Origin: a virus
UHGV virus genome: UHGV-0394577
Direction: 5' to 3' (one strand)
Length of the DNA: 11,770 nucleotides
The notes below the pieces were generated by a model. It did not search any database, was not told the origin of the DNA, and worked only from the letters and a program-made list of their open reading frames with translations. Position 1 is the stretch's first letter. Each line of letters begins with the position of its first letter. Positions 74 through 11,770 of the stretch are shown in pieces. A program made the position numbers and the translations under genes.

Positions 74-274
74 ATGACAGAGCACGCCTTAAAGGTGGCT
101 ATAAAAGTGATAGACATCACAGCGGGAGAAGGATACGCGAAAGCACATCCCGAACTGATAAGCGCATTCATGACCACAGCGGCGGCAAACTTTGCCACGC
201 TGACAGAGCGGGAGATTGCCGAAGCGGAACAGGTAACAACCATCAACGTTAAAACCGGAGAGGTGAAATCATGA
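74..274 (+). CDS. hypothetical protein, possibly 5'-truncated by the window edge
   Basis: ORF track 66 aa. The same frame is open back to position 2, and the GGAG directly abuts the ATG at 74 (poor spacing), so the true start may lie upstream of the window. Stop overlaps the ssb start (ATGA). Confidence 0.4.
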   Translation: MTEHALKVAIKVIDITAGEGYAKAHPELISAFMTTAAANFATLTEREIAEAEQVTTINVKTGEVKS

Positions 275-681
275 CAGCACAGATAGCCGCTTACGGGCGG
301 CTGGTGGACGACCCGCAGGTAAAACAGACCAGCAAGGGCACACCGATGACGCTGGCGCGTATGGCGGTATCGTTGCCATGCAGTCAGGCGCAGGACGGGC
401 AGGCAACGTTATGGCTGTCGGTCCTGGCATTTGGCAAACAGGCCGACCAACTGGCAGGACATGAGAAAGGCAACGTAATCAGCGTATCCGGCGTGATGCA
501 GGTCAGTCAGTGGACCGGACAGGACGGGGAGACGCGTCAGGGTTATCAGGTCATTGCCGACAGCGTAATCAGTGCGAAAACGGTGCGACCAGGCGGCAGC
601 AGACGCAAAACCACAGGCACACAGGGTAATCAGCCACCAGCGGGAGGCGATGACCCTTACGGTGATGATATTCCGTTCTGA
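271..681 (+). CDS. ssb: single-stranded DNA-binding protein (SSB) homolog
   Basis: 136 aa; OB-fold-like N-terminal region alignable by eye to E. coli SSB (LVDDPQV, W..V.AFGKQA, QWTGQDGETR), Gly/Pro-rich linker and the characteristic acidic C-terminal tail ending DDIPF; SD GGAGAGGTG upstream. Confidence 0.8.
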   Translation: MTAQIAAYGRLVDDPQVKQTSKGTPMTLARMAVSLPCSQAQDGQATLWLSVLAFGKQADQLAGHEKGNVISVSGVMQVSQWTGQDGETRQGYQVIADSVISAKTVRPGGSRRKTTGTQGNQPPAGGDDPYGDDIPF

Positions 682-691
682 GGGGGTGACG

Positions 692-964
692 ATGGTACAT
701 GACCGCATAGCGGAAGAACTCGAAGCGAAAGGATTTTACCGGAGGGCGGCGGCGCGATGGGGTGAAGTCATGATGCTGGTGGAGACAGACAAGGAACGGC
801 ATCACATCACGATGCGACGGCTGGAATGTTCCAGGAAGGCACAGAGGCCACCGGAGCCGCCTGATAATTTCGGAGACCTGAGAAATGCAGTCAATCGCAC
901 TTGTGCCGAAATGGGTATAGATGGTGCTGGTGATGAAATATGGCGCAATTACCAGGACAGCTAA
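692..964 (+). CDS. PerC-family transcriptional regulator-like protein
   Basis: 90 aa starting at ATG 692 (SD GAGGGGG at 681-687), internal to track ORF 572..964. N-terminal motif AEELEAKGFYRRAAARWGEVM resembles the PerC/Pch signature (LE.KG.WRRAA.RW..VM) as recalled from memory. Confidence 0.55.
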   Translation: MVHDRIAEELEAKGFYRRAAARWGEVMMLVETDKERHHITMRRLECSRKAQRPPEPPDNFGDLRNAVNRTCAEMGIDGAGDEIWRNYQDS

Positions 965-971
965 TCACACT

Positions 972-994
972 GCCGGAGAAATCCGGCTTTTTTT
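972..994 (+). terminator. rho-independent terminator (hairpin GCCGGAGAAATCCGGC + T7)
   Basis: Perfect 6-bp GC-rich stem with 4-nt loop followed by 7 T, 8 nt after the stop of the PerC-like gene. Confidence 0.6.
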
Positions 995-1089
995 GCGCCA
1001 GTTGAAACGGTATGGCGCATTACCGGCTTTTCGTCACGGTCCGGCATAGTTACTATCTGAAACAAACAGACACAACAGAGGAAAAAACA

Positions 1090-2839: not shown

Positions 2840-3175
2840 ATGAACACTCCATACATTGAGTTATTTGCAGGCAGTCAGCAGGTATCAACGACGCTGGTAC
2901 ATTTTGCCGCTGATGCTGGCGTTATTCAGGAATTTACCCCGCTGATGCTGGTGGACAATGGCGAGTTTAAGCCGTGGGATGGTCAGGAATCTGGCAAGGC
3001 TGTTTATCTGACCTCGTACCCCGTGGACACGTCGACGCAGAAATCAGCACAGTGCTACAAGACGGGGATATTCAATATTGCCGCCGTTAACTGGCCTGAG
3101 AGCGTCGACACCGATGCGAAAAAATGCGCCGCCTTTGCGGGTTCTGGCGTATCCGTTCAGCCGCTGGCCCGATAA
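2840..3175 (+). CDS. head decoration protein, phage lambda gpD-like
   Basis: 111 aa (lambda D is about 110 aa); shared motifs TPLML, WDG, YKTGIF, WPE, AFAGSG; SD GGGGGAT. Gene order here is E then D, the reverse of lambda. Confidence 0.8.
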   Translation: MNTPYIELFAGSQQVSTTLVHFAADAGVIQEFTPLMLVDNGEFKPWDGQESGKAVYLTSYPVDTSTQKSAQCYKTGIFNIAAVNWPESVDTDAKKCAAFAGSGVSVQPLAR

Positions 3176-3606: not shown

Positions 3607-3631
3607 GCCGGAGAAATCCGGCTTTTTTTTT
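3607..3631 (+). terminator. rho-independent terminator (hairpin GCCGGAGAAATCCGGC + T9)
   Basis: Third copy of the same hairpin, identical to the copy at 972-987; the T-run runs into the cosQ-like sequence. Confidence 0.6.
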
Positions 3632-3698
3632 ACGGGTCCTTTCCGGCATATGGACCCGTTACGGGGCGGCGACCTCGCGCGTTTTCGCTATTTATGAG
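3631..3698 (+). other. lambda-type cos site (cos1): cosQ-like TACGGGTCCTTTCCGG, cosN GGGCGGCGACCT at 3664-3675, start of cosB
   Basis: TTTACGGGTCCTTTCCGG...GTTACGGGGCGGCGACCTCGCG.GTTTTCGCTATTTATGA matches the joined right and left ends of phage lambda DNA as recalled from memory; lies upstream of the Nu1-like gene as in lambda. Confidence 0.75.
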
Positions 3699-3808
3699 CC
3701 TTTTCGGGTTGGTGGTGGTGGTTTTGTTGTTCGCTCTATCTCCATGAATAAAAAGGGAAAGATAACACCAACACACCAACCTGAAGCATTAATTAAGTGG
3801 GGGTATTG

Positions 3809-4351
3809 ATGAAATCGCACCTGATGAACAAAAAAACTATGGCGCAAAGCTGCCGCGTAAGCGCCACTGCGTTCGATAAGTGGGGAGTAACTCCCGTTGA
3901 GCGTAAAGGCCGTGAGGCGTTTTATGATGTTGCTAGCGTGATAGACAATAGGGTTAACAATGCAATTAACCAGCTTACAAACGACAAAGGCGAGATTGAT
4001 GATGATGAACTTTTACGCGTAAGAATCAGATTAATGACGGCCCAGGCGGAAGCGCAGGAACTTAAAAACGAGCGCGAACGCGGCGAGGTGATTGATACAG
4101 AGTTTTGCATGTACGCGCTTTCAAAACTGGCAAGTCAGATTTCTTCAATCATGGACAGCCTCCCGCTTACTATGCAAAGGAACTTCCCACAGATGCCCCC
4201 CGCTATGCTGCATGGGCTTAAGAGGGAAGTAGTTAAAGCCTGTAATGCCAGTGCCAGAGTTGCCGACAACCTCCCACAGATACTGGCTGATTACTTGAAA
4301 GAAACAACCGGAAACGTACCGGAAAAGTTGCTACAGAAGAAAGGCGAGTAA
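3809..4351 (+). CDS. terminase small subunit, lambda Nu1-like
   Basis: Track ORF 3797..4351 begins at GTG; ATG 3809 follows a GGGGG SD. The middle and C-terminal regions resemble lambda Nu1 (RLMTAQAEAQELKNERERGEVIDTEFCMYALSKLASQISSIMDSLPLTMQRNFPQ; LKREVVKACNASA), while the N-terminal putative DNA-binding region is divergent. Confidence 0.85.
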   Translation: MKSHLMNKKTMAQSCRVSATAFDKWGVTPVERKGREAFYDVASVIDNRVNNAINQLTNDKGEIDDDELLRVRIRLMTAQAEAQELKNERERGEVIDTEFCMYALSKLASQISSIMDSLPLTMQRNFPQMPPAMLHGLKREVVKACNASARVADNLPQILADYLKETTGNVPEKLLQKKGE

Positions 4352-4472: not shown

Positions 4473-4571
4473 AGAAGAAGAACGGATCTGACTTTTGCCG
4501 GAAAATTTTCATAAACAGATAAAATCCGCGAGGTCGCCGCCCCGTAACGGGCCATAATTCCAGGAAGGACC
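4473..4571 (-). other. second lambda-type cos site in inverted orientation (cos2): cosQ-like, cosN (4531-4542, minus strand), R3-like CCGTTCTTCTTC
   Basis: Reverse complement reads CGGGTCCTTCC...CCGTTACGGGGCGGCGACCTCGCGGATTTT...TTTATGAAAATTTTCCGG...CCGTTCTTCTTC, matching lambda cos further into cosB than cos1 does. Confidence 0.7.
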
Positions 4572-4606
4572 CGACGACACCAGACTATCAGAACGATGGG
4601 GGCACA

Positions 4607-5385: not shown

Positions 5386-5468
5386 GTTTAAAAGTTGAAT
5401 CAGGAACATTCTTTTAAATCATTCAGTTACATGATCAATTAAACTACTCTCGTGCCGACCAAATTGCC

Positions 5469-5644: not shown

Positions 5645-5679
5645 TAAAACCCTGTTTTTTCGTGTGGAATCATAGACAT

Positions 5680-6921
5680 ATGGCGAGAAAAACAACCCAA
5701 TTAACCACAGTGCAGATCAAAGCAGCCAGGCCAGCGGAAAAGGAGTACACCCTACAGGACGGCGGGGGGCTTTTTCTCCTGGTCAAACCGTCCGGATCAA
5801 AACTCTGGAGATTTTCCTACTACCGACCATCGGACAAAAAAAGAATATTGCTGAGTTTTGGATCGCTTGAAGATGTTTCCCTGGCTGATGCCAGAAAACG
5901 CCGTAGCGAGTACAGGACGTTAATCAGTGCCGGAACTGACCCGCAGGACCACGAGAGGCAAAAAAGAGAGACAGAGGCCCGAAGACAAGGGAACACGTTC
6001 GAAAATGTGGCGGCGGCATGGTACCAGGTGAAAATCAGCCAGAATCTGGCCCCCAACACGATTAAAGACATCTGGAGATCGCTGGAAAAATATGTATTCC
6101 CGTTCATCGGTAACACGCCAATAGACACCCTGACCGCTCGCAGGTTTGTTGAGGTGCTTACCCCCATCAAGGAACGTGGCAACCTGGAAACACTCAAACG
6201 GGTTTTACAGCGAGTCAATGAAGTAATGGATTACGCCGCCAACAGTGGGCTGATCGATACCAATCCGGCTATGAATGTGCGTAAGGCGTTCCCCTCCCCT
6301 GTAAAAAAACATATGCCAACAATCCGCCCCGAGCAGTTGCCGGAGCTTATGCAGGCTTTATCAGTATCGGCAACAGAACGGCAGACCAGATTACTGATCG
6401 AATGGCAGTTACTGACCGTAACCCGTCCCGCCGAAGCGTCATCAACTCGGTGGGATGAAATCGACATGGACGCGAAGCGATGGACGATACCCGCCGGACG
6501 CATGAAGATGAGGCGTGATCACGTTATCCCGCTTTGTAGTCAGGCTATGGCGGTACTGGAGGCTATGAAACCAATCAGCCATCACCGCGATTACGTTTTC
6601 CCGAGCCTGAAAGACCCACGGCAGCCTATGAACAGCCAGACCGCAAACGCAGCATTGCGGCGGATGGGGTTTGGCGGGGTTCTGGTTTCTCACGGTATGC
6701 GCGCCATATTCAGCACCGCAGCGAACGAAGAAGGATTTGAGCCGGACGTAATAGAGGCCGCACTAGCCCACGTGGACACCAACGAAGTGAGACGGGCATA
6801 CAACCGGAGCAACTACATAGAAAAACGCATCGTGCTTATGCGCTGGTGGGGCGAATTTGTCGAGGCGGCGGCAACGGGCGTGACCCTTGCCAGTGGTAAA
6901 AGGGGTATTCGGGCCGTGTAG
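5680..6921 (+). CDS. int: tyrosine recombinase / integrase, P4-family
   Basis: Track ORF 5662..6921 begins at GTG; ATG at 5680 gives the N-terminus MARKTTQLTTVQIKAARPAEKEYTLQDGGGLFLLVKPSGSKLWRFSYY typical of P4-like integrases; C-terminal catalytic region with R...HVIPL...HGMR..F...A and a Y in RRAYNRSNY. Confidence 0.92.
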   Translation: MARKTTQLTTVQIKAARPAEKEYTLQDGGGLFLLVKPSGSKLWRFSYYRPSDKKRILLSFGSLEDVSLADARKRRSEYRTLISAGTDPQDHERQKRETEARRQGNTFENVAAAWYQVKISQNLAPNTIKDIWRSLEKYVFPFIGNTPIDTLTARRFVEVLTPIKERGNLETLKRVLQRVNEVMDYAANSGLIDTNPAMNVRKAFPSPVKKHMPTIRPEQLPELMQALSVSATERQTRLLIEWQLLTVTRPAEASSTRWDEIDMDAKRWTIPAGRMKMRRDHVIPLCSQAMAVLEAMKPISHHRDYVFPSLKDPRQPMNSQTANAALRRMGFGGVLVSHGMRAIFSTAANEEGFEPDVIEAALAHVDTNEVRRAYNRSNYIEKRIVLMRWWGEFVEAAATGVTLASGKRGIRAV

Positions 6922-7417: not shown

Positions 7418-7624
7418 ATGGAAGCAATCAAAAAAGTCATCTTTCGCCAGGAAGTAAAAAAACTTATCCACATCAAGGCAGACAGCACGCTGCAAAGCAT
7501 GATCAACGCCGGAGAATTCCCGCAGGGTTTTCGCGTTGGTTTACGCCGTCGAGGATGGTATGAGGATGACGTAATCGCCTGGATGAAAGAACGCGAACAG
7601 GAAGCACGCGGAACGGCTGCTTAA
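7418..7624 (+). CDS. alpA: AlpA/Vis-family phage regulatory protein (excisionase-like HTH)
   Basis: 68 aa; STLQSMINAGEFPQGFRVGLRRRGWYEDDVIAWMKER fits the AlpA-family pattern (FP, G.R..GW.E.EV..W); sits downstream of int as in P4-like and PICI elements. Confidence 0.75.
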   Translation: MEAIKKVIFRQEVKKLIHIKADSTLQSMINAGEFPQGFRVGLRRRGWYEDDVIAWMKEREQEARGTAA

Positions 7625-7656
7625 CGGGTATCACAGATATGACGAACACGAAAAAA

Positions 7657-7680
7657 GCGGCCCCGATATGGAGCCGCCTT
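7657..7680 (-). terminator. possible terminator for minus-strand transcripts (5-bp GC stem, then T6 on the minus strand)
   Basis: AAAAAAGCGGC...GCCGCC on the plus strand; on the minus strand the stem is followed by TTTTTT. Weak stem with a long loop. Confidence 0.3.
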
Positions 7681-8000
7681 TCTGAACAATTAACCCGCTG
7701 CGCATTATGTATCAACAAACATAAGCCAGGGCATGATAGCCGCTATCAGGCTGGTGGGCAATGCTATCAGTCTGTTTCAGTGCGTTTCCATAACTGCGAA
7801 GCTCTCTCCTTTGATGAGTATTCTTTAAGGTACTTCTCAAGGGCAAAAGAACACGGCGCGAATCGTTCTGATTCATGCTCTTTCTTTCTGCGTCGTCTTT
7901 TTCGTGCAGGTGATGTTTTTTTGGTTGATTCTTCGTTGGTCATTGTGTGCGCCTGTAAAGCAATGCGCCGGAGTTCCTCACACCACGGCGCTGATAGTTT

Positions 8001-8192
8001 TTATCCTTTGGGTTCTATGCCGCGCCGCTTTAGTTCAGTGCGCCCCAACTCTTTAAGCCAGTTGGCTAGGCTTATGCCGTCGCTCTGTGCTTCTTTGTCG
8101 AATTGCTCTTTTAGCTCTGGAGAAATTCGCATTCTGAATTGTGGGGATTGCCCGTCCCCTTTAGGGCTTTTATCGCGTTTGATTGTTGACAA
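8001..8192 (-). CDS. ribbon-helix-helix (RHH) DNA-binding protein, putative regulator
   Basis: C-terminal FRMRISPELKEQFDKEAQSDGISLANWLKELGR fits the RHH pattern (beta strand then two helices, as in MobC/CopG-type proteins). Proposed start is TTG 8192 with AGGTGA SD; alternatives are ATG 8132 or the track's TTG 8273. Confidence 0.4.
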   Translation of the reverse strand: MSTIKRDKSPKGDGQSPQFRMRISPELKEQFDKEAQSDGISLANWLKELGRTELKRRGIEPKG

Positions 8193-8235
8193 GTGGTCAC
8201 CTATTGAATTAGCCTTTCTATTGTTAGGTGACCAC
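8193..8235. promoter_or_regulatory. operator-like inverted repeat GTGGTCACCT-n23-AGGTGACCAC
   Basis: Perfect 10-bp inverted repeat; each half contains the palindromic GGTCACC/GGTGACC core; located at the 5' end of the RHH gene and upstream of the Ash/Icd operon. Confidence 0.4.
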
Positions 8236-8326
8236 CTTAACACAAGAGCACTTAAAAAAGCAAAGCCCCGCAAGTGTCATTACCACTCGCAGGGCTTCTA
8301 ACCAACAACGTAAACTAGGAGCCGTT

Positions 8327-8524
8327 ATGGTTGCCGTAAATCATATAACACACCTTGTACACACACAAACGGCCTTTGTGTGGCGTTTTCTGGCCCTGAG
8401 TGCCGGAGAATCTCAAATCATCCACGTAACCGCCTGGACGGAACGCGAAGCGCGTAGCCGTTGCCCGTCAGGTTGTGTTGCTGTATTTGCCGCTCGTATT
8501 CGTCAGGGGTCACATCATGCGTAA
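8327..8524 (+). CDS. Ash/Icd-like small protein (P4-type), short paralog
   Basis: 65 aa from ATG 8327 (SD TAGGAG), internal to track ORF 8228..8524. TAFVWRFLALS...VTAWTEREARSRCP...VFAARIRQG is paralogous to the C-terminus of the next ORF and resembles Ash/Icd-like proteins as recalled from memory. Confidence 0.5.
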   Translation: MVAVNHITHLVHTQTAFVWRFLALSAGESQIIHVTAWTEREARSRCPSGCVAVFAARIRQGSHHA

Positions 8525-9426: not shown

Positions 9427-9726
9427 ATGAAACTTAAATATCCTGGCTTAACTGCCAGCGGCAAAACTCGCACTAAATTCATGTGCGGGGATATTTACCG
9501 CGATAAGTACGGCGGCACGGTAATGATTAAGAGCGTGGAGGAACGGCGCGTAACTTACCGTCGTGAAGGCTACCAATATGATTGCGTGATGCCTGTTTAT
9601 CAGTTCGAACGTGATTTTTCTCTTGTGCAGGCCGTACCGCGTAACGTGCCCACCAGCAGGGAGAAAGCACGCGCCAATATTCAGGAAATAAGAAAGATGT
9701 TGAACGTATTCAGGGGTAAAAAATGA
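9427..9726 (+). CDS. hypothetical protein (99 aa)
   Basis: ATG 9427 with GGAG 10 nt upstream; stop overlaps the primase start (ATGA). Confidence 0.5.
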   Translation: MKLKYPGLTASGKTRTKFMCGDIYRDKYGGTVMIKSVEERRVTYRREGYQYDCVMPVYQFERDFSLVQAVPRNVPTSREKARANIQEIRKMLNVFRGKK

Positions 9727-11477
9727 AACTTGCACCGAACGTAAAACAGCAGTCACGCGGCATAAAACACAAAGGAACAGAAGTCATTATTTTTGCGGGT
9801 AGTGATGCCTGGTCACACGCTAAACAATGGCAGGAACATGACGCGCGTATGGCCGGAGATAATGAGCCTCCTGTGTGGCTTGGGGATCAGCAGTTATCCG
9901 AACTGGATAAGCTGCAAATTGTGCCGGAAGGCCGAAAATCAGTACGCATATTCAGGGCCGGACATCTTGAACCTGTAATGATAAAGGCGATTGGTCAGAA
10001 GCTGGCGGCGGCAGGTGTACAGGATGCAAATTTTTACCCTGAGGGAATGCACGTTCAGGAGGTGGAGAACTGGCGCGAATATCTGGCCCGTGAGCGCCAG
10101 AATCTTTCTGAAGGTCTGTTCGTTGAGCTTCCGGTAAAGCAAAAGGCGCAACTTTCGCAGATGGCGGACAGTGAACGCGCTCAGCTGCTTTCCGATCGCT
10201 TTGATGGCGTTTGCGTACATCCTGAAAGTGAAATCGTTCACGTATGGCGCGGCGGGGTATGGTGTCCGGTCAGCACAATGGAACTTAGCCGCGAAATGGT
10301 GGCGATCTATTCAGAGCACAGGGCCACTTTCAGCAAGCGCGTAATCAATAACGCCGTTGAAGCGTTAAAAGTTATTGCCGAACCAATGGGCGAGCCGTCC
10401 GGCGATTTGTTGCCGTTCGCCAATGGTGCGCTTGACCTGAAAACGGGGGAATTTTCCCCGCACACGCCGGAGAACTGGATCACCACGCACAACGGTATTG
10501 AGTACACGCCACCAGCACCAGGGGAGAACATCCGCGATAACGCGCCAAATTTTCATAAATGGCTTGAGCACGCAGCCGGAAAAGACCCGCGCAAGATGAT
10601 GCGTATATGTGCCGCGCTGTACATGATTATGGCGAACCGGTACGACTGGCAGATGTTTATTGAGGCCACCGGAGACGGCGGAAGCGGTAAAAGTACATTC
10701 ACGCATATAGCCAGCCTTCTGGCAGGGAAACAGAACACGGTAAGCGCTGAAATGACCTCACTTGATGATGCTGGTGGACGTGCGCAGGTTGTCGGGAGTC
10801 GTCTTATCGTCCTGGCTGACCAGCCGAAATATACAGGCGAAGGAACGGGCATCAAGAAAATCACGGGCGGCGACCCCGTGGAAATTAACCCGAAATATGA
10901 AAAGCGTTTCACGGCGGTAATCAGGGCGGTGGTGCTGACGACCAACAACAACCCGATGATATTCACCGAACGGGCCGGAGGCGTGGCACGTCGTCGGGTT
11001 ATTTTTCGCTTTGACAATATCGTTAGCGAGGCAGAAAAGGACAAGGATTTGCCGGAGAAGGTCGCGGCTGAAATCCCTGTGATTATCCGCCGATTACTGG
11101 CGAACTTTGCCGACCCTGAAAAGGCCCGGGCTTTACTCCTGGAACAGCGCGACGGTGATGAAGCACTGGCAATAAAGCAACAGACGGATCCGGTTATTGA
11201 GTTTTGCCAGTTCCTGAATTTTCTGGAGGAAGCGCGCGGCCTGATGATGGGTGGCGGTGGCGATTCAGTGAAGTACACGACCAGGAACAGCCTTTACCGC
11301 GTCTATCTGGCGTTTATGGCGTACGCAGGCAGGAGCAAACCGCTAAACGTAAATGACTTTGGCAAGGCTATGAAGCCCGCTGCAAAAGTTTACGGACATG
11401 AATATATTACGCGGAAAGTTAAGGGAGTAACGCAGACTAACGCAATAACAACAGACGATTGTGACGCGTTTTTATAA
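9723..11477 (+). CDS. P4-alpha-like primase/helicase replication protein (SF3 helicase domain)
   Basis: 584 aa; Walker A GDGGSGKST, Walker B-like LIVLAD, later VVLTTNN motif; architecture typical of P4-family/PICI primase-helicase; iteron origin immediately downstream. Confidence 0.88.
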   Translation: MKLAPNVKQQSRGIKHKGTEVIIFAGSDAWSHAKQWQEHDARMAGDNEPPVWLGDQQLSELDKLQIVPEGRKSVRIFRAGHLEPVMIKAIGQKLAAAGVQDANFYPEGMHVQEVENWREYLARERQNLSEGLFVELPVKQKAQLSQMADSERAQLLSDRFDGVCVHPESEIVHVWRGGVWCPVSTMELSREMVAIYSEHRATFSKRVINNAVEALKVIAEPMGEPSGDLLPFANGALDLKTGEFSPHTPENWITTHNGIEYTPPAPGENIRDNAPNFHKWLEHAAGKDPRKMMRICAALYMIMANRYDWQMFIEATGDGGSGKSTFTHIASLLAGKQNTVSAEMTSLDDAGGRAQVVGSRLIVLADQPKYTGEGTGIKKITGGDPVEINPKYEKRFTAVIRAVVLTTNNNPMIFTERAGGVARRRVIFRFDNIVSEAEKDKDLPEKVAAEIPVIIRRLLANFADPEKARALLLEQRDGDEALAIKQQTDPVIEFCQFLNFLEEARGLMMGGGGDSVKYTTRNSLYRVYLAFMAYAGRSKPLNVNDFGKAMKPAAKVYGHEYITRKVKGVTQTNAITTDDCDAFL

Positions 11478-11491
11478 TTTTTTGCAATGGC

Positions 11492-11718
11492 TGTCTACCC
11501 TGTCTACCTGAGTAAAGGAAAATACATTTAATTCAGTATATTAAGTTAGGTAGATAGCCTTTTTTCCCTTGTCTACCTGCTGTCTACCCTCTCTACCTGA
11601 TTTTACCTGAACCAGAAAGGGAGGTAGATACGGGTAGATAGTGAATAAAAGCACTCTACCCCGCTGAAAGCCGCGCCATTACTGGAATGGGGGCCAGCAA
11701 GGTAGATAAGGTAGACAA
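11492..11718. repeat. replication origin iterons (TGTCTACC / GGTAGATA, about 11 copies in both orientations)
   Basis: Direct copies at 11492, 11501, 11571, 11581 and 11590 (degenerate TCTCTACC); inverted copies at 11549, 11623, 11633, 11701 and 11711; 9-10 bp phasing within clusters; similar to the P4 ori/crr type I iteron TGTTCACC as recalled from memory. Confidence 0.7.
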
Positions 11719-11770
11719 GGGGAGGCACAACTCAAAACTTTTTAAACGAGGGGGTAAAAATAAATATGCA

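Follow-up and report, generated by a model that had tools for sequence, protein, structure and literature searches.

The region 271-964 of the viral DNA analyzed here (UHGV virus genome UHGV-0394577; the whole stretch of 11,770 nucleotides is referred to as the window) very probably represents the ssb-pchE gene pair of an EcCICFT073-type PICI, SSB being predicted to work as an accessory of satellite replication and PchE as a host-directed conversion regulator. The pair is located directly after the gene for the primase-helicase and a predicted iteron origin, and before the packaging genes. The pair itself is already known, having been annotated or discussed for O-island 51/CP-933C/Sp7 and for EcCICFT073 (PMC3378721, PMC6092414). 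An ssDNA-binding gene and PchE are listed on O-island 51 (PMC3378721), the ssDNA-binding gene was described by Flockhart et al. as conserved in the islands of CFT073 and ED1a, RgdR was found by Fillol-Salom et al. to be encoded by all the E. coli PICIs analyzed and PerC alleles by some of them (PMC6092414), and PerC-family regulators were reported by Pick et al. to be common in Gram-negative PICIs (PMC11773190). The main value of the present analysis is the correct annotation, by which the window is placed in a well-studied family of E. coli satellites and its regulator is recognized as an allele of pchE, which in O157:H7 is documented to affect curli, adhesion, and motility. Small additions are the linkage of the two genes (722 of the 728 genomes with perC), the cassette structure with repeated terminators, the statistics of the SSB tail, and the dN/dS values.

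The ssb gene (positions 271-681, + strand) encodes a protein of 136 amino acids that combines an OB fold with a short linker and ends in a DDIPF tip. The product matched Pfam PF00436 (E = 1e-15; 58.1 bits against a cutoff of 26), NCBIfam TIGR00621 (55.9 bits; cutoff 53.95), and, in the sequence search of PDB, 25 solved SSB chains. Its C terminus in the six-frame list of open reading frames is ...DDPYGDDIPF (...GGDDPYGDDIPF). After a spacer of 10 nt (682-691, + strand), which carries the ribosome-binding site GGGGGTGA, the perC-family gene (692-964, + strand) follows in a different reading frame, starting from the ATG at 692 behind a Shine-Dalgarno-like GAGGGGG and ending with the stop codon at 962-964. 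The 90-residue product matched Pfam PF06069 over profile positions 1-89 of 90 (E = 5.4e-42; 142 bits; cutoff 22.6). Since both scores are far above the curated thresholds, chance matches can be dismissed for SSB and PerC. The preliminary description had placed an SSB with an intact DDIPF tail, followed by a PerC-like regulator, at 271-964, and both genes were found exactly there; the former agrees with the PF00436 and TIGR00621 matches and the ...GDDIPF end, and the profile search that was proposed there for the latter gave the strong full-length match to PF06069. A longer version of perC starting from GTG at 572 (130 amino acids), as given in the mechanical list of open reading frames, was disfavored by the profile match and by the 273-bp RefSeq genes in relatives. 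Membership of PerC in the ANR (AraC negative regulator) family was also rejected, because the match to NF033650 stayed below the cutoff (19.9 bits against 32; E = 4.7e-4) and covered only residues 7-52, indicating a distant resemblance.

The two proteins are 90% and 89% identical in amino acid sequence to ECs_1587 and PchE (ECs_1588), respectively, of E. coli O157:H7 Sakai. Based on this 89% identity and on the same flanking genes, the window PerC is assigned as the PchE ortholog, and SSB is likewise assigned by sequence comparison as the ortholog of ECs_1587. On the Sakai prophage-like element Sp7 (identical with CP-933C, O-island 51, and EcCIEDL933), the genes are arranged in the order of hyp, ECs_1587 (annotated as "single stranded DNA-binding protein"), pchE, and ECs_1589. 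The hyp-ssb-pchE-orf74 block is common to Sp7 and the window, with equal lengths of 136, 90, and 74 amino acids for the last three products and an equal spacer of 10 nt; the product of orf74 (1090-1314, + strand; PHROG 1957) is 95% identical to ECs_1589. An RgdR homolog upstream of the primase gene is also common to both, and is represented in the window by the DUF4222 protein (9427-9726, + strand; profile match), with 89% identity to RgdR (ECs_1581). Sp7 differs from the window, however, in having a complete module of HK97-type capsid, portal, and terminase genes (a capsid-forming PICI) and in adjoining roxA/phoQ, whereas the corresponding genes of the window are limited to lambda E/D-like and Nu1-like ones and its att site matches tRNA-Pro. 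The end of SSB is DGIPF in Sakai but DDIPF in the window. RgdR is the O-island 51 regulator reported as activating LEE/type III secretion, and homologs of both published O-island 51 regulators, RgdR and PchE, are present on the window island.

EcCICFT073, the experimentally characterized cos-type PICI of E. coli CFT073, has the same architecture and most of the same proteins as the window, including the two cos sites and the Rpp/TerS-like gene (PMC6092414, PMC6739421). Its SSB is 91% identical to that of the window, but its PerC is a shortened allele with 77% identity, orf74 is absent, and the integration site is different. The island of strain JNEC-KY174 carries the same block, with identities of 97% for SSB and 100% for PerC. 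The spacing of 10 nt between ssb and perC is also conserved in Sakai, CFT073, and KY174, and in these three islands the hyp-ssb-perC block stands beside three different packaging modules; the ssb-perC block therefore belongs to the replication side of a mosaic element.

Because the primase and the capsid homolog are 97% and 94% identical, respectively, to their EcCICFT073 counterparts, the element is an EcCICFT073-type PICI. The 11.77-kb window is a complete PICI of this type in an apparently excised, circularly permuted form. Profile matches were obtained for a tyrosine integrase (5662-6921), an AlpA-like HTH protein (7418-7624), a P4/D5-type primase-helicase (pri-rep; 9723-11477, + strand; Pfam D5_N, DUF5906, and Pox_D5; TIGR01613), the replication initiator, encoded 5' of the ssb block, a lambda E-like capsid protein (1773-2828), a D-like decoration protein (2840-3175), and, with Pfam, a Nu1-like small terminase (TerS/Rpp-like; 3797-4351). 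The layout is that of a PICI, with int, alpA, and pri-rep in this order, a predicted ori 3' of rep, a size in the range of about 10-15 kb, and no genes for tail and lysis. The satellite setting assumed in the preliminary description is in agreement with this set of integrase, AlpA, primase, and capsid/terminase-like genes. No gene for portal, large terminase (TerL), protease, tail, or lysis was detected among the window genes. Capsid-forming PICIs (cf-PICIs) carry the complete set of HK97-type capsid, protease, portal, connectors, TerS, and TerL; assignment of the window to this class was rejected, since portal, protease, and TerL are absent and only the E-like, D-like, and Nu1-like genes are present. 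For EcCICFT073, induction by helper phage, replication, and high-frequency transfer have been demonstrated (PMC6092414).

The ends of the window fall within a single gene. The open reading frame for a hypothetical protein of 92 residues, orf92, starts at 11766 and continues from position 1 (11766-11770 joined to 1-274, + strand), indicating that the window is a circle opened inside orf92. The stop codon of orf92 overlaps the start codon of ssb (ATGA), and the joined translation is 85% identical to a 92-residue protein directly upstream of ssb in the island L001 and 70-88% identical to its counterparts in L006 and L007, and matches PHROG 1231 (E = 2e-47). In chromosomes, the integrated copies are located between tRNA-Pro and yejO in the order of int, alpA, ..., DUF4222, primase, hyp, ssb, (perC), capsid, decoration, and terS-like. 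Colinearity of the chromosomal matches with the window was thus rejected, the window being a circular permutation of the integrated element. A sequence at about 5439-5463, which corresponds to the 3' end of tRNA-Pro, matches both the left and right ends of integrated copies, and from this match it was identified as the attP core. As judged from this organization, the window looks like the excised or circularized (or circularly assembled) form of the satellite.

Between the stop codon of the primase gene and orf92-ssb, the segment 11480-11740 is densely filled with iterons of the CTGTCTACC / GGTAGATA type in direct and inverted orientation, and presumably constitutes the replication origin of the island. 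The position of this putative ori agrees with the rule that PICIs have their origin directly 3' of rep (PMC6092414). The 12-mer GGGCGGCGACCT of lambda cosN is present twice, at 3664 on the + strand and at 4531 on the - strand, one in each arm of a 76-nt inverted repeat (3633-3708 and 4498-4573; 79% complementary) that flanks the Nu1-like terS/Rpp gene. This pair corresponds to cos1 and cos2 of EcCICFT073 as published (PMC6739421).

The ssb-perC pair is widespread in E. coli. With a probe of 261 nt, the junction was found contiguous in 722 of 5426 complete genomes (about 13%), in which perC is present in 728 and ssb in 714 at a coverage of at least 80% (963 with any match). Since the junction is found in nearly as many genomes as perC, nearly all pchE-type genes must be located directly 3' of a satellite ssb. 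At this frequency, the pair commonly supplies mobile regulatory variation between strains. Some islands, such as L001, carry ssb without perC; in L001, both perC and orf74 are absent and the terminator hairpin of perC follows directly after the ssb stop codon. In the window, the terminator scan identified at 972-995 (+ strand) the hairpin GCCGGAGAAATCCGGC with a T run behind it, an intrinsic terminator that closes the ssb-perC unit. Additional copies are located after orf74 (1335-1356, + strand) and after orf137 (3607-3628), so that the window has three copies of the hairpin GCCGGAG[A/C]AATCCGGC with a T run, as against an expectation of zero. The threefold repetition and the position of the hairpin directly after ssb in L001 suggest that perC and orf74, a small gene traveling with perC, are separately terminated cassettes that could be gained or lost by recombination between the repeated terminators. 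Further downstream, a perfect 14-bp hairpin between A and T runs (AAAAGCCCGATAAG...CTTATCGGGCTTTT; 1366-1404) looks like a bidirectional terminator, and a promoter-like site (1454-1483) with palindromes (1454-1540) follows shortly before the packaging genes; the region 1366-1540 is conserved even in a relative without perC. In the search of a phage collection, the ssb-perC block was found in no phage, and DNA matches were confined to cos regions; weak PerC-like protein matches in this collection include one in the IS-rich cargo region of a P1-like phage.

On the + strand, no consensus-like promoter was found in 1-1000 or 11300-11770, which gives weak negative evidence. Together with the spacer of 10 nt and the single terminator after perC, the lack of an internal consensus promoter suggests that ssb and perC are co-transcribed. 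The expression of pchE in O157:H7 is, however, basal in the lysogenic state and drops on SOS induction (PMC6265319). Because such a fall fits poorly with simple co-transcription in a replication operon that depends on induction, a separate promoter or another control of pchE may exist. It could be imagined that perC, being physically locked to ssb, ends the transcript of the satellite replication unit, and that PchE would then couple adhesion, curli, and motility of the host to the state of the satellite, silent or induced, and so represent a signal rather than a passenger virulence gene, but this seems rather doubtful.

PerC of the window is only about 42% identical to the canonical PerC of the EPEC EAF plasmid and highly identical to PchE, and was thus classified as a group 3 (PchE-type) member among the PerC homologs. 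The group 1 proteins, plasmid PerC of EPEC and PchA/B/C of EHEC prophages, belong to the same family PF06069 and are also small helical proteins of about 90 residues. In function, the group 1 proteins activate LEE1/ler, whereas PchE of group 3 does not and represses curli and adhesion (PMC7369912, and PMC11773190 citing Porter 2005). The LEE1 fusions were likewise not activated by the PerC-like genes of EcCIEDL933 and EcCICFT073, according to PMC11773190 (citing Porter 2005). Upon over-expression of PchE, csgD expression, curli, biofilm formation, and adhesion to HEp-2 cells decrease and flagellar expression increases (PMC6265319, PMC7369912), and phenotypes are observed on deletion or expression of the ortholog (PMC6265319). 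For a PerC-family gene carried on a PICI, an effect on virulence regulation of the host has been demonstrated with EcCIMP1_025 of EcCIMP1, which represses LEE1, has a reported identity of about 40% with the alleles of EcCICFT073 and EcCIEDL933, and was proposed by its authors to be ANR-like (PMC11773190). Cross-talk of the PerC-like protein with host regulation, raised as a possibility in the preliminary description, is thus established for its ortholog PchE (PMC6265319, PMC7369912) and for this other PICI-borne protein (PMC11773190). By analogy with its ortholog, PchE of the window is probably a conversion regulator directed at the host.

An AF2 model of PerC, with a pLDDT of 83 that exceeds 90 for the first 50 residues, consists of helices throughout. 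The sequence search of PDB gave only noise (E > 0.19), and a Foldseek search of PDB with this model gave no hit below E = 3. As modeled, PerC is an all-helical protein with no recognizable HTH or other DNA-binding fold, and no mechanism is readable from the fold. From the phenotypes of the ortholog, the all-helical model with no solved relative, and the sub-threshold resemblance to ANR, PchE would most likely act on host genes through protein-protein contacts or an interplay with H-NS, and not as a classical operator-binding activator.

An alternative reading is that PerC serves the satellite itself as an internal regulator, for instance as the activator of the packaging operon that begins about 600 bp downstream. 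The replication module indeed lies on one side of the gene and the packaging module on the other, nearly all the perC genomes (722/728) have the gene linked to ssb, and the N-terminal 50 residues of its product match phage families labeled "transcriptional activator" (PHROGs 10396, 2608, 1324, and 868). In L001, however, the intergenic region and the packaging genes are the same although perC is missing, and EcCICFT073 is still transferred at high frequency with its truncated allele (PMC6092414), both observations indicating that the satellite cycle can do without PerC. The joining of the perC block to three unrelated packaging modules is also hard to fit with a dedicated promoter partner, and host genes are clear targets of the ortholog (PMC6265319, PMC7369912). 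An internal role of PerC is thus improbable, and the host-directed role of PchE is preferred.

The SSB of the window was compared with the chromosomal SSB of E. coli, for which the reference sequence was confirmed to be identical to PDB 1eqq. The two proteins have in common the OB fold, the C-terminal D-D-I-P-F tip, and the equivalents of W54, F60, and W88, but the overall identity is 28%, and the window protein is shorter (136 as against 178 residues) with a shorter L23 loop and a linker of about 35 instead of about 65 residues. In the alignment, W54, F60, and W88 of E. coli SSB correspond to W48, F54, and W81 of the window SSB, while Cys37 and Leu49 stand at the positions of W40 and H55. Three of the four aromatic ssDNA-stacking positions scored (W40, W54, F60, and W88) are thus kept, a common state in divergent SSBs of phages and plasmids. 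The expectation in the preliminary description that the conserved ssDNA-binding residues are present holds for the W54, F60, and W88 equivalents and for the C-terminal tip, but not for the W40 equivalent. Because the equivalents of W40 and H55 are missing, the mode of binding and the state of oligomerization may not be those of host SSB.

Within the satellite SSB family, 103 of 110 near-full-length cluster representatives end with IPF (70 xDDIPF, 26 DNIPF, and 3 DGIPF), these being fairly close relatives (71-100% identity) that sample the family to no great depth. The IPF tip is kept also in variants of 140-149 residues with an unrelated linker sequence, and by these comparisons the C-terminal tip is conserved. 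In a scan of one genome per species, the only SSB relatives were at three Klebsiella P4-like loci (L003-L005), where the SSB gene (6001-6444) is located directly after that for a primase of 920-940 residues. The Klebsiella proteins are 58-72% identical to the window SSB and end with YDDDF, not with DDIPF, and no PerC gene is present near their genes. At the sensitivity of one genome per species, the pairing of ssb with PerC appears to be confined to Escherichia-type islands.

The location of ssb right after pri-rep and the predicted ori, together with the location of the Klebsiella SSB genes directly after primase, points to a replication accessory; the protein probably functions in replication of the satellite, its tail being compatible with the host. 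Upon induction of the island by a helper phage, the primase-helicase would open the origin, and the satellite SSB would then coat the single strands laid bare, with the conserved W48, F54, and W81 as contact residues. The ...DDIPF tip would dock the host partners of the SSB tail such as the chi subunit of the clamp loader, PriA, and repair nucleases, and its own SSB would allow the island to amplify without depleting the host pool of SSB. It is also conceivable, though rather doubtful, that the host-type tail recruits replisome or repair factors of the host to the PICI origin.

The preliminary description also raised competition with host SSB for partner proteins, and the same tail could instead be mainly a weapon or decoy, titrating the host partners of SSB or replication and recombination proteins of the helper, or modulating defense systems that sense SSB. 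The canonical DDIPF tip on a divergent OB domain with a very short linker and its conservation across the satellite family would fit such a role, and the post-ori genes of other PICIs often mediate interference (PMC6739421). When the post-ori genes of EcCICFT073 were expressed singly, however, only c1503 (rppA) reduced plaquing of lambda, according to the same paper, in which the SSB clone is not named explicitly; the lack of lambda inhibition by the other clones weakly disfavors an interference role of SSB. No match was obtained in the search with defense-system models, and the gene position after pri-rep and ori fits replication, as does that of the Klebsiella P4-like SSB genes directly after primase. 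A principal function as a decoy is thus quite improbable, and the function in replication is preferred.

Pairwise dN/dS values of 0.08-0.22 for ssb and about 0.25 for perC indicate, at the sequence level, that both genes are maintained by purifying selection (0.08-0.26 in total). Although such islands have long been annotated as cryptic or defective prophages (PMC3378721) and some alleles are truncated (CFT073 and partial proteins), it is hardly credible that ssb and perC are decaying leftovers of a defective prophage with no current function, given the intact open reading frames in hundreds of genomes, the dN/dS of about 0.1-0.26, the presence of all the parts of a mobile PICI (att, predicted ori, and cos), and the phenotypes of the ortholog on deletion or expression (PMC6265319).

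Outside the region of the gene pair, the equivalents of 7639-8524 in relatives carry, in RefSeq, fragments of an Icd-like cell-division inhibitor together with a YlcI/YnfO-family gene on the opposite strand. In the window, the open reading frame at 8001-8273 (- strand) gave a weak match to HicB (E = 9e-4).
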